A stretch of 24,824 nucleotides of DNA from a virus (IMGVR_UViG_3300050821_003111); one strand, 5' to 3'. Numbered from the stretch's first letter, positions 14,951 to 16,782 are shown. Program-made: numbers and translations. Notes: generated from the sequence alone by a model not told the origin.

Positions 14951-16141
14951 CTAAAGTCCATTGAATTCATCCGCGTTTCTAATATATACTTCTTTTCCTA
15001 GTATTTTAGGTTCAAATTGTTTCCAGATTTGGACTTTCCAGTCCCCGCCTGATAAGCACGCGAACAATATCGGGTGAAGATTCGCCGGCTCCTGTTGTAT
15101 AGCCATGGCCCACACTTTCCTAGTAGCCCTCTCGTCAGGCTTGGGCGTCGTTCTAGTAAGCTGCGATGTAGAGAAAATCGCCACTCTTCCAAACGCTGAT
15201 ATAGCTTCAGATTCGGTTTTATCATACATCCTCTGAAATGTGGTTATCCACCCTGTACACCATTCAACAAATTGTTTGTTATGAATAGCTGGTCTCCACA
15301 AAGCTTCAGGATCATATCCAGACATCAAATGTTCCCATATACCTTTAGGGTTTAGACCTGTAATTACTTTATGTAGTCTAACATATTCCTCGGTTTTTAT
15401 TTTTATACGAAGCGGTATCGGGGCTTTAGAGTTCCAGTACTGGAGGACAAAACCCTCTCTATTTGATTCCGCAAATGATTTGCATTTTTCAAGGGTAAAT
15501 TCTTGATATTCTGTAGCCACCCGAAGCCCATTACGATTTCCCCATGTGCTAGTTTCCTCAGACGATAACTCAAAACCTGTCTTGATGTTAACGAGCCCCA
15601 AAAGAACGAGACCCTCGTACTCATAGCTGACGACAATTCTGTTCTCCTTATAGATGATTTCGAAGAGAGGAGTATATCCTTCTGGCCAATCAGGATCAGT
15701 GTATAATCCCGAGTCAGAAGGATGGTAATGCTCATTATACCACTTGGTAGCCCAGTTAGCCTGATCAGAAGCGAATGAACCTCTGGTGGCAATGTAAGGT
15801 TTTCCAGCATAGTGATAGAGGATACCCAGAGACCCATCAAGCTTTTCTAAGACCTTCGGCTGCCAGGAAGGCAGGTTAACTTCATGAGTCTCTGGTCTGA
15901 AGGAGGTGTTCAGATTGAAGAACTTACGAAATGGTCTAGCTAGTACATCTCCAGTACCCGAATCAACTATTAATCCACGACATTGCTCAGTAACACTATC
16001 CCATATATTATCATGCTGAGCAACATGAGTATAGTTATAAATCTTCAGATTAGGATAATCTGGATGTTTTATCTCGGATACAACACCCTTAAAGATGTGA
16101 TCCTTAAGAAGACTGACATTCAGTAAGTCGTTTATGTTCAA
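14951..16141 (-). CDS. RNA ligase 1 (T4 RnlA/gp63 family)
   Basis: Collinear with T4 Rnl1: YNYTHV.. / YNYASY.., CRGLIVD / CRGIMFE, RPFRKFFNLN / RPMEKFFNLN, and lysine-adenylation motif I KLDGSLG (T4 KEDGSL). TTG start with AAGGAG 8 nt upstream. Confidence 0.85.
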   Translation of the reverse strand: MNINDLLNVSLLKDHIFKGVVSEIKHPDYPNLKIYNYTHVAQHDNIWDSVTEQCRGLIVDSGTGDVLARPFRKFFNLNTSFRPETHEVNLPSWQPKVLEKLDGSLGILYHYAGKPYIATRGSFASDQANWATKWYNEHYHPSDSGLYTDPDWPEGYTPLFEIIYKENRIVVSYEYEGLVLLGLVNIKTGFELSSEETSTWGNRNGLRVATEYQEFTLEKCKSFAESNREGFVLQYWNSKAPIPLRIKIKTEEYVRLHKVITGLNPKGIWEHLMSGYDPEALWRPAIHNKQFVEWCTGWITTFQRMYDKTESEAISAFGRVAIFSTSQLTRTTPKPDERATRKVWAMAIQQEPANLHPILFACLSGGDWKVQIWKQFEPKILGKEVYIRNADEFNGL

Positions 16142-16235
16142 GATATTTACTCCTTGTTATTCCATATAGTGCTATGAGTCTTCTTGGTGTCAGAATAATC
16201 TGGTGTAAAGAGGGATAGTAATACCACCACTTCAT
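16104..16235 (-). CDS. MKWW-family micro-protein, 43 aa (MKWWYYYPSLHQIILTPRRLIALYGITRSKYLEHKRLTECQSS)
   Basis: Last member of a six-member array. ATG overlaps the previous stop (ATGA). Its 3' end overlaps the Rnl1 start in another frame. Confidence 0.4.
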   Translation of the reverse strand: MKWWYYYPSLHQIILTPRRLIALYGITRSKYLEHKRLTECQSS

Positions 16236-16369
16236 GTTTTATCCCTATAATACTTCCATCGAAGTTTGAACTCTCTATAATCAAAGCTGCGATATTTTCT
16301 CTCTCTTAGTTTGAGAATGAACTTTCCATGATAGTAATTAGAGTATGAAATTCTGGTCCACCATTTCAT
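16232..16369 (-). CDS. MKWW-family micro-protein, 45 aa (MKWWTRISYSNYYHGKFILKLRERKYRSFDYREFKLRWKYYRDKT)
   Basis: TAATG overlap with the upstream member. Motifs MKWWTR and RKYR. Confidence 0.5.
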   Translation of the reverse strand: MKWWTRISYSNYYHGKFILKLRERKYRSFDYREFKLRWKYYRDKT

Positions 16370-16485
16370 TAGAAAGATCTCCTACGCATCTGGCGTCGTA
16401 TCAGCCGTCTTGTTAAAATAATCACGCAGCTATCGCCATATCCGTCTTTGTGATCATATTTAGGAATACGCAGCCACCAGCTCAT
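16369..16485 (-). CDS. MKWW-family micro-protein, 38 aa (MSWWLRIPKYDHKDGYGDSCVIILTRRLIRRQMRRRSF)
   Basis: TAATG overlap with the upstream member. MSWWLR. Confidence 0.5.
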   Translation of the reverse strand: MSWWLRIPKYDHKDGYGDSCVIILTRRLIRRQMRRRSF

Positions 16486-16592
16486 TAGAAAGGTACCTGG
16501 TAATATCGATTAATAAGTATTATACAACTATTATGAAGCCAACGCTTTCTATTACGACTATACCAGTAGTATCTACGACTCCACCATTTCAA
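16485..16592 (-). CDS. MKWW-family micro-protein, 35 aa, TTG start ((M)KWWSRRYYWYSRNRKRWLHNSCIILINRYYQVPF)
   Basis: TTG overlaps the upstream TGA. No in-frame ATG is available. The conserved KWWSR follows. Confidence 0.4.
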   Translation of the reverse strand: MKWWSRRYYWYSRNRKRWLHNSCIILINRYYQVPF

Positions 16593-16687
16593 ATTGACCT
16601 CTTTCTAGAATCTGCACGATATTTCCTGGGATATATAAATGTATAAGAACGTCTACTAGGATCCCAGAGTCTTATCCACCATTTCAT
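16589..16687 (-). CDS. MKWW-family micro-protein, 32 aa (MKWWIRLWDPSRRSYTFIYPRKYRADSRKRSI)
   Basis: ATGA overlap with the upstream member. MKWWIR and PRKYR. Confidence 0.5.
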   Translation of the reverse strand: MKWWIRLWDPSRRSYTFIYPRKYRADSRKRSI

Positions 16688-16782
16688 GTTAATTTCCTGC
16701 GATACTTTCTTGAATATATTTGAATATGTGATCGTGGTGGATGCCAAAGATCGTCATATGTGCGTATCCACCATTTTATCAT
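16684..16782 (-). CDS. MKWW-family micro-protein, 32 aa (MIKWWIRTYDDLWHPPRSHIQIYSRKYRRKLT)
   Basis: First member of the array, 7 nt after the TAA of the membrane-protein gene. IKWWIR and SRKYRR. Confidence 0.5.
   Translation of the reverse strand: MIKWWIRTYDDLWHPPRSHIQIYSRKYRRKLT

Follow-up and report, generated by a model that had tools for sequence, protein, structure and literature searches.

Tandem, overlapping MKWW micro-ORFs in large uncultivated phages: a probable family of very small basic peptides in an RNA-repair neighborhood

The micro-open reading frames (micro-ORFs) described here lie in tandem on the minus strand of a 24,824-nucleotide (nt) stretch of viral DNA, IMGVR_UViG_3300050821_003111, referred to below as the window. 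Judged from the DNA and its relatives, they very probably constitute a real translated gene family, and comparison of orthologs indicates that the sequence of the encoded peptides is under purifying selection at the protein level. The window matches the ENA metagenome contig ERZ27253508 k141_1621833. It looks like part of a large phage: its genes are all on one strand, and it carries five tRNA genes along with a reduced RNase P RNA.

An earlier note on this window, made from its sequence, had proposed that positions 16104-16782 read on the minus strand as six consecutive ORFs with M(I)KWW or MSWW starts, one of them using TTG, and all six were found there, encoding peptides of 32-45 amino acids (aa). 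Five begin with ATG, and the TTG start belongs to the third, A3. The junctions, in order, are ATGA (A1/A2), TTGA (A2/A3), TAATG (A3/A4), TAATG (A4/A5) and ATGA (A5/A6), overlaps of the kinds that the note had described, and since every start sits on the stop of the preceding ORF, each ORF is in the -1 frame of its predecessor. The placement of this array (array A) between a membrane-protein gene and an Rnl1-type RNA ligase gene was also borne out (Table 1). Sequences for ribosome entry are embedded in the ORFs themselves: the last codons of A4 contain AGGAGA, the Shine-Dalgarno sequence of A5, while the 3' part of A6 holds both the AAGGAG Shine-Dalgarno sequence and the TTG start (16141) of Rnl1, so that A6 and Rnl1 overlap by 38 nt. 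In the relatives L011, L014 and L017, the ATG of Rnl1 overlaps the stop of the last micro-ORF as ATGA.

A hidden Markov model (HMM) of the family, run on all six frames of the window, returned exactly 12 members, as the note had counted, all on the coding strand and distributed as six, four and two in arrays A (16104-16782), B (21979-22490) and C (10134-10390). A scan for in-frame TGGTGG likewise gave exactly 12. The weakest of them by HMM is A3. With one mismatch or none allowed, 10 copies of ATGAARTGGTGG are present in the window, all on the minus strand, compared with a mean of 0.18 and a maximum of 2 in shuffled sequences. Array B is flanked by a SprT-like gene and a NUDIX gene, and array C by genes for a SpoU methylase and a NADAR protein. 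Of the 12 members, C2 (P0001) alone has been called by a gene caller in public databases.

Extending the search to phage and metagenome data with a model built from the paralogs, as the note had suggested, brought the census to 153 HMM-positive open members in 23 loci. Relatives were fetched through homology to Rnl1 and their DNA was then read; further loci came from a tandem-start DNA pattern followed by an HMM filter. Statistics on codons, composition and starts, including Arg codons, Shine-Dalgarno sequences and isoelectric point (pI), were computed on 81 aligned members.

A short motif repeated in tandem might also be noncoding, a repeat acting at the DNA or RNA level (a regulatory site, an array of structured RNAs, a degenerate tRNA array or a mobile miniature element) that is open in one frame by accident. 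The region is passed over by gene callers, strong DNA conservation is confined to the 12-nt ATGAAATGGTGG, and the start motif alone cannot tell selection on DNA from selection on protein, because Trp and Met each have a single codon. Codon usage beyond that motif speaks against this explanation. The near-invariant central Arg (present in 73 of the 81 aligned members) draws on all six of its codons (AGA 17, CGT 17, CGC 13, CGA 11, CGG 9 and AGG 6), the Arg at position 6, two residues past WW, is AGR in 25 members and CGN in 33, and the conserved aliphatic positions use mixed Leu, Ile and Val codons. The mixing of synonymous codons at conserved residues, to which the note had drawn attention, is thus general in the family. 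In a DNA logo, conservation is limited to ATGAAATGGTGG and a weak AGGA at -19 to -14, with none past the start.

The codon-position test gave the same answer. Across eight ortholog pairs aligned without gaps (283 codons at 74% nt identity, MKWW codons excluded), differences fell at the first, second and third codon positions in the numbers 56, 40 and 121 (p = 9e-12), and the ratio of nonsynonymous to synonymous differences per site (pN/pS) was 0.22 in the ORF frame as against 1.02 and 1.11 in the other two. Synonymous sites therefore change ~4-5 times faster than nonsynonymous ones, and only in the proposed frame, which upholds the claim of protein-level selection rather than a DNA repeat. A larger set of 32 pairs (918 codons) showed differences of 344, 263 and 517 by codon position, with pN 0.305 and pS 0.759. 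Frames broken in relatives while the DNA was conserved had been named as the observation that would refute a coding family; what was found is the reverse, with frames staying open while the DNA diverges and intact in orthologs at 51-97% aa identity.

Individual orthologs in the relative L013 illustrate the pattern. They were compared ORF by ORF; because the order of paralogs differs between the two genomes, aligning array A end to end with its L013 counterpart at the nucleotide level was uninformative. The ortholog of A1 (L013, 393-500) is 60% identical in aa sequence with per-codon-position differences of 0.27/0.30/0.67, that of C1 (6257-6388) is also 60% identical (0.33/0.31/0.55), and that of A4 (280-396, MHWWIRFPEYDRKDGYCKSLVIIMSRKYIHNRFNRVSF) is 51% identical and shows a third-position excess. 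For A6 the excess is absent (0.36/0.38/0.38), and this, together with its overlap with the Rnl1 start, suggests that A6 may be decaying. Overall, peptides of the window and L013 share 50-60% protein identity compared with 73-81% for Rnl1, SpoU and the vault-like protein, indicating that the micro-peptides evolve faster yet remain constrained.

Translation signals are kept as well. Start codons among the 81 members are ATG (72), TTG (8) and GTG (1). Shine-Dalgarno-like 4-mers occur 4-16 nt upstream of 47 of these starts (58%), compared with 18% of other ATGs on the same strand (p = 6e-16) and 81% of the long genes of the window, and 51 of 66 in-array junctions are stop/start overlaps of 4 nt or 1 nt. 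The suggestion that the ORFs are translationally coupled is consistent with both features of the DNA. The same signals account for a recurrent C-terminus, [R/K]-[R/K]-[S/T]-[F/I], in which 53 of 59 Arg codons are AGG or AGA, compared with ~40% AGR at internal conserved Arg. Read as DNA, this segment is AGGAnnTCnTTCTAATG, which comprises a Shine-Dalgarno sequence, a spacer and the start of the next ORF. Read this way, the conserved R/K-S-F/I at the C-terminus is no peptide motif but the imprint of the ribosome-binding site that serves the following ORF, and part of the basic tail is therefore a by-product of coupling.

RNA structure offered no support for a noncoding role. The predicted folding of the array equals that of shuffled sequences (minimum free energy z-score 0.07), with no excess structure, an Rfam scan of the region gave no match with an E value (E) below 0.4, and ARAGORN found no tRNA there; a terminator was sought after the array and none was found. 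An array of structured RNAs, an idea for which the opposite strand was also checked for a tRNA-like CCACCA, was ruled out by the fold z-score, Rfam and ARAGORN. A single polyprotein produced through stop-codon reassignment was also ruled out, since successive ORFs are in different frames and each has its own start codon. The open frames in relatives, the mixing of Arg codons, the codon-position asymmetry, the Shine-Dalgarno signals and the lack of RNA or DNA structure together refute the repeat and structured-RNA explanations, and we consider a noncoding origin of the region extremely improbable.

The peptides have a median length of 38 aa (range 26-74) and a composition of 16.5% Arg, 9.3% Trp, 6.9% Lys and 5.6% Tyr, with Asp and Glu together at 4.3% (D 2.3%, E 2.0%) and a median pI of 11.3. 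The note's description of them as rich in Trp, Arg, Tyr and Lys and strongly basic thus holds for composition, with the qualification that the basic C-terminus partly reflects the ribosome-binding-site constraint. Conservation is concentrated at the N-terminus and in a central core. The N-terminal signature is M-K-W-W-φ-R-[F/Y/φ], followed by a loop of 0-12 residues rich in G/N/D/Y/S, and the core is [W/C/Y/F]-[ILV]-R-[LI]-x-P-R-[K/R]-(0-4 residues)-[Y/W]-R, followed by a basic tail. A second motif, (I/L)x(P/S)RKYR, had been reported for most of the ORFs; it is general in the looser form [ILV]-x-[LI]-x-x-R-[KR], while the exact RKYR is found in three of the six ORFs of array A. AlphaFold models of two different members agree on a β-hairpin formed by pairing of the WW and I-R-L strands, with a short basic helix after it (strands 4-8 and 16-20 and helix 21-29 in A2, with a predicted local distance difference test score [pLDDT] of 68.5; strands 4-9 and 18-23 and helix 28-33 in B2, pLDDT 67.5). 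Hydrophobic and basic residues alternate along the strands.

Sequence searches of Pfam, PHROGs and the PDB found no relative of the family. A profile of the 12 window sequences, searched against 5.8 billion proteins, recovered C2 of the window itself and nothing else; a search of 1.84 billion cluster representatives gave one spurious match to a 'VITRKYRATD' repeat of a 1535-aa surface protein, which was discarded. A profile of 139 sequences found nothing in protein databases. These empty results are likely explained by the rarity with which the ORFs are called and by the shortness of the profiles. Literature on MKWW, tandem phage micro-ORFs and small Arg-rich phage paralogs yielded nothing relevant, and in the libraries and papers searched we found no description of the family, in agreement with the note, whose author knew of none.

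Tandem genes for small peptides are already known, and what distinguishes the present arrays is their chain length, strict coupling, β-hairpin and cationic character, phage setting and family size. The psmα1-4 genes of Staphylococcus, which encode phenol-soluble modulins (PSMs), and the multicopy type I toxin genes (ldr, ibs) are likewise side-by-side paralogous ORFs of 20-45 codons that gene finders miss and that encode amphipathic peptides. Those peptides, however, are membrane-inserting hydrophobic or amphipathic α-helices encoded in 2-5 copies without stop/start chaining, and type I toxins are paired with antisense RNAs, whereas the phage-encoded peptides described here are strongly basic, with a predicted β-hairpin and helix, form chains of as many as 13 and have no sequence similarity to them. 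Nor do the sequences contain any hydrophobic run of ~15 or more residues, as expected of a type I toxin or PSM membrane helix. We know of no longer termination-reinitiation chains than these micro-ORF arrays.

Other small basic peptides offer partial parallels. Arginine-rich-motif RNA binders, such as the N-termini of the λ and P22 N proteins and the β-hairpin of BIV Tat, are short and Arg-rich and have an aromatic residue able to stack on RNA; BIV Tat binds as a β-hairpin, and the N proteins are phage-encoded. They differ from the present family in being segments of larger proteins rather than multigene families and in lacking MKWW and I-R-L-x-P-R, and RNA binding by the present peptides is a prediction. 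The Trp/Arg-rich antimicrobial peptides indolicidin, tritrpticin and lactoferricin, and the β-hairpin types arenicin and tachyplesin, resemble the family in their W, R, K and Y content, net charge and size, and the family shares with the latter types a predicted amphipathic β-hairpin; high positive charge and W/R enrichment are plain in its composition. Antimicrobial peptides are, however, secreted for host defense, usually cut from precursors and often stabilized by disulfides, whereas the present peptides would be produced in the cytoplasm of the infected bacterium, with no export signal and no conserved Cys pairs. Among ββα mini-domains, represented by the C2H2 zinc finger and the designed, metal-free FSD-1, the likeness lies in a predicted β-hairpin followed by a basic helix within ~30 residues. 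The Cys2His2 ligands of the zinc finger are absent here, with no conserved Cys/His pattern in the family alignment, and the Foldseek match to this fold, made with low-confidence models, is not significant (E 8.8, TM 0.34). A superficial likeness to SpoVT/AbrB domains (MazE, VapB) was also considered: φ-φ-I-P-K-x-φ-R there and φ-R-L-x-P-R-K-Y-R here both follow a Gly/Asn-rich turn, but that domain is about twice as large as the present peptides. An AbrB/MazE-like identity, suggested by this motif, was rejected, with an hhalign probability of 0.2% in a weak test (against a reference alignment of nine sequences) and no match to PF04014.

All relatives whose Rnl1 is at least 57% identical to that of the window (57-72%) carry micro-ORF arrays in matching places, namely immediately ahead of Rnl1, ahead of NUDIX and in the SpoU-NADAR interval, and syntenic arrays were found in L013, L011, L014, L017 and L018. 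The most extensive case is L017, with runs of 12, 13 and 10 consecutive members, or ~34 in 21 kb; in L019, where Rnl1 is 46% identical, arrays are absent. Single paralogs can be recognized as orthologs between genomes, for example A4 of the window, its counterpart at 280 in L013 and those at 3147 and 8643 in L017. Copy number ahead of one and the same gene ranges from 2 to 13, which, together with the recognizable orthologs, indicates that the family expands and contracts yet keeps particular members. The genomes that carry the arrays form a clade of uncultivated phages with genomes of ~215 kb: Rnl1 homologs of 54-72% identity lie on metagenome contigs of 211-219 kb, DNA similarity searches against 50,697 GenBank phages gave tRNA matches only, and the closest Rnl1 among cultured phages is at most 36% identical, so that no close cultured or annotated relative was found. 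A search of IMG/VR through Rnl1 returned only relatives of 25-26% identity, without arrays.

The tandem-start DNA pattern combined with the HMM filter recovered 17 further metagenome contigs with arrays, and a pattern scan of IMG/VR found one true array (L009) among chance matches. Species-representative bacterial and archaeal genomes gave 31 pattern matches and no real family member carrying that pattern. Several matches were traced to unrelated sequences: Sel1-repeat proteins with 'KAMKWW' every 36-41 residues in metagenome-assembled genomes of Chromatiales and Thioalkalispiraceae (L110, L108, L036 and ~15 other loci), and a tRNA gene array in Pseudoalteromonas (L119). Given these matches, the 12-nt start motif alone is not diagnostic of the family. 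Passing the HMM is not decisive either, as two identical 25-aa 'MKWWRRRPRLGGRRLALPM' segments on a contig of 54% GC (L090, 2079-2258, minus strand) resemble a direct DNA repeat and were set aside as a probable false positive. On L009 (3186-3673, minus strand), three more small ORFs have an internal '...S(S/T)VWIF(W/C)W(G/S)(K)R...' motif in place of the N-terminal MKWW, and from their sequences they may be a related subfamily with an N-terminal extension; a GIY-YIG endonuclease-like gene lies at 2146-2856 of the same contig.

Arrays run head to tail on the coding strand within long operons, and their last ORF abuts or overlaps the start of an ordinary enzyme gene such as Rnl1, NUDIX or NADAR. 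At all array loci, including those found by DNA pattern, the neighbors are of RNA-repair, tRNA and counter-defense type: Rnl1, an Rnl2-like ligase, Pnkp, RlaP, Thg1, SpoU, RNase P RNA and tRNAs, and further NADAR, a macro-like domain, NAMPT with NUDIX, PspA, a TPM-domain gene and DNA polymerase A. The window itself encodes Rnl1, a second RNA ligase, Thg1, the SpoU methylase, NADAR, NAMPT with NUDIX, a vault-like protein and a peptide deformylase. Its interval 9511-24162 (minus strand) has the character of an RNA-repair/counter-defense island, with Rnl1, a PHA02142/Rnl2-like ligase, Thg1-like, SpoU, NADAR, NAMPT with NUDIX and SprT-like genes, to which the corresponding island in relatives (L011, L014, L017, L067 and L101) adds Pnkp, RlaP, PTH2, a macro-like domain, PspA and a TPM phosphatase.

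We tentatively favor, at somewhat less than an even chance, the view that the arrays encode a coupled microprotein family that is ββα-folded and binds a polyanion, probably RNA, within an RNA-repair/counter-defense region. Ribosomes would move along an array by termination-reinitiation and make roughly equal amounts of each peptide. Each peptide would fold as a β-hairpin formed by the WW and I-R-L strands, followed by a short Arg/Lys-rich helix, giving a metal-free ββα mini-fold that could bind tRNA, rRNA or mRNA, and the many diverged, individually conserved paralogs might serve different targets or host variants. RNA is favored as the target because of the RNA-repair, tRNA and counter-defense genes nearby and the predicted basic helix. 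Several points weigh against this view. RNA binding is deduced only from charge, aromatic content, predicted fold and neighboring genes, and the same composition would suit membrane-active peptides equally well. The structure models are of low confidence (pLDDT 67-68) and were built on a 12-sequence alignment, and Foldseek found no significant structural neighbor for them, the zinc finger mentioned above being its second match. The C-terminal Arg and Lys share of the basic character stems from the ribosome-binding site and not from peptide function. The neighborhood argument is partly biased, as many loci were fetched through Rnl1, while the unbiased, pattern-found loci lie in like regions. 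Finally, choosing ortholog pairs for their likeness in amino-acid sequence pushes pN down, although the large pS and the control in the other two frames indicate that the pN/pS signal is real.

The main rival to RNA binding is membrane activity. As amphipathic β-hairpins that are cationic and rich in Trp and Arg, the peptides would target the host membrane at its anionic inner leaflet, or would work once released. The composition (pI ~11) resembles that of Trp/Arg-rich antimicrobial peptides, the alternation of hydrophobic and basic residues in the strands fits such a role, and array A comes after a membrane-protein gene in the window and after PspA, a membrane-stress protein, and a TPM-domain gene in relatives. 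Arrays B and C and most others, however, adjoin RNA ligase, NUDIX, SpoU, NADAR, RlaP and macro-domain genes rather than membrane or lysis genes; no export signal or membrane-spanning stretch is present, and no holin or endolysin was found nearby in the window. Depolarization, superinfection exclusion or help with lysis timing would be possible roles under this explanation, which on balance we regard as improbable.

Because stop/start overlaps link the ORFs throughout, with Rnl1, NUDIX or NADAR coupled to the final one, the arrays could mainly exert translational control, as a relay of upstream ORFs that meters or gates ribosome flow into the downstream enzyme gene with the peptides as by-products. 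Two Trp codons open each ORF and the adjoining genes serve tRNA repair, and such a relay might, for example, sense the supply of Trp-, Lys-, Arg- or Tyr-tRNA under attack by host anticodon nucleases. Purifying selection on the internal peptide and the retention of paralogs as orthologs would, however, be needless in a pure spacer, the number of copies ahead of the same gene varies from 2 to 13, and stalling would cut expression of the repair enzymes exactly when they are required. The arrays share tandem Trp codons with attenuation-type leader peptides such as trpL and tnaC, but they have no terminator or excess, attenuator-like structure, their core is selected and they comprise up to 13 copies. 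Control of translation as the main function is therefore distinctly unlikely.

Less likely still, and to be considered very unlikely, is that the ORFs are precursors of ribosomally synthesized and post-translationally modified peptides (RiPPs), for instance with Lys-Trp or Trp-Trp cross-links introduced by a radical-SAM or ATP-grasp enzyme. Many diverged, precursor-like tandem genes with a conserved K-W-W motif would fit such a role; a radical-SAM gene lies ~5 kb from the arrays in L014 (one relative only), and the window has a GSP_synth/ATP-grasp-like gene. No modifying enzyme adjoins any of the three window arrays, however, no maturation enzyme consistently accompanies the arrays elsewhere, and neither a protease nor an exporter was found with them. 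The conserved motif is at the extreme N-terminus, without a leader/core layout, the conserved β-hairpin core resembles a folded unit, and the acidic residues needed for graspetide links are rare.

If the favored RNA-binding view is set beside a more specific one, it is possible, if doubtful, that the arrays represent a new class of phage effector, in which 6-13 different microproteins, metal-free and of ββα or β-hairpin fold, produced in equal amounts from one coupled relay, act together. Such peptides might, for example, protect RNAs such as tRNAs from the anticodon nucleases of the host by coating or shielding them, or might join, one hairpin at a time, in a hetero-oligomeric β-structure, and the arrays would then be a new layer of the phage RNA-repair and counter-defense island. 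Were this effector role true, current annotation would be overlooking such genes by the dozen in each genome; were the peptides generic polycation fillers, the arrays would be merely an annotation curiosity. Provided that the family is what it seems, kilobase-sized 'empty' stretches of large phage genomes can be densely coding, as in L017, and a family of at least 150 members has left essentially no trace in protein databases because standard gene finders call almost none of them. The family also provides a natural example of very small, apparently self-folding, Trp-stabilized cationic peptides under purifying selection, which at 32-45 residues are synthesizable, and their placement among genes for tRNA repair, NAD salvage and ADP-ribose removal makes them candidates for a new anti-defense or RNA-handling factor.

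Table 1. Micro-ORFs of the three arrays and other features of the window (E, expect value of the HMM or Pfam match).
Feature	Position	Strand	Length	Sequence	Remarks
Micro-ORF A1	16684-16782	-	32 aa	MIKWWIRTYDDLWHPPRSHIQIYSRKYRRKLT	Start 7 nt past stop of 191-aa membrane-protein gene; TGA overlaps A2 ATG; family HMM, E 1.8e-7
Micro-ORF A2	16589-16687	-	32 aa	MKWWIRLWDPSRRSYTFIYPRKYRADSRKRSI	Stop overlaps A3 TTG start; family HMM match
Micro-ORF A3	16485-16592	-	35 aa	(M)KWWSRRYYWYSRNRKRWLHNSCIILINRYYQVPF	TTG start; family HMM, E 0.0035
Micro-ORF A4	16369-16485	-	38 aa	MSWWLRIPKYDHKDGYGDSCVIILTRRLIRRQMRRRSF	Family HMM match
Micro-ORF A5	16232-16369	-	45 aa	MKWWTRISYSNYYHGKFILKLRERKYRSFDYREFKLRWKYYRDKT	Begins MKWWTRISYSN; family HMM, E 1e-7
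Micro-ORF A6	16104-16235	-	43 aa	MKWWYYYPSLHQIILTPRRLIALYGITRSKYLEHKRLTECQSS	Begins MKWWYYYPSL; family HMM match
Rnl1-type RNA ligase	14951-16141	-			PF09511, E 9e-20; apparent TTG start behind strong AAGGAG
Membrane-protein gene	16790-17365	-	191 aa		Signal peptide and hydrophobic segments; directly upstream of array A
Micro-ORF B1	22347-22490	-	47 aa	MKWWLRWYHTGATHKPKTNPGWKITVVHRKIGKMCQEAYPKAYPPSI	ATG overlaps stop of SprT-like gene (ATGA); family HMM match
Micro-ORF B2	22224-22337	-	37 aa	MKWWVRVGSCNVWNNHPHIRLFPRYKKWRTYFEHKSI	AGGAG upstream of start with 9-nt spacer; family HMM match
Micro-ORF B3	22089-22208	-	39 aa	MTWWKLMNNVIADHVGSRYSYCLRLIHRKYRNQYLRKSI	ATGA junction to B4; family HMM match
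Micro-ORF B4	21979-22092	-	37 aa	MKWWVRVTWFWTNQRCLRLMPRSKIKEILSQYVVRRS	Ends 10 nt short of NUDIX gene; family HMM match
SprT-like gene	22487-22870				
NUDIX gene	20994-21968				
Micro-ORF C1	10253-10390	-	45 aa	MSWWKRFSTGYPNNKLFIAITWRKYPYTLKTGLPSYHFHRRRVTI	Downstream of SpoU methylase gene; ATGA junction to C2; family HMM match
Micro-ORF C2	10134-10256	-	40 aa	MKWWVRRSVTAYSTWIRLSFSGKYEYLDWPLKPSWLIPYR	Upstream of NADAR gene; family HMM match
Vault-like protein	11100-13520	-	806 aa		PF11978, E 2.7e-26; PF17795
RNase P RNA	8663-8932	-	270 nt		Rfam RF00010
GSP_synth/ATP-grasp-like gene	4664-5806				
tRNA-Ile(UAU)	2718-2810	-	93 nt		ARAGORN call

Three further features of the window deserve mention. 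The reduced RNase P RNA is of the bacterial type A and scores 106.3 bits, the gathering score being 100; the conserved GAGGAAGUUCAGG and ACAGAAACC cores are present, and P18 and most of P12-14 are missing, with 97 model positions of the latter reduced to 18 nt. This minimized, phage-encoded RNA adjoins tRNA genes and tRNA-repair enzymes. The tRNA-Ile(UAU) called by ARAGORN is not reported by the Rfam tRNA model at its gathering score, and it may be a false call, or a tRNA gene interrupted by an intron or insertion. The vault-like protein combines the shoulder and repeat domains of the major vault protein with an SPFH/Band-7 region; it is 81% identical to its counterpart in L013 and is unusual for a phage.

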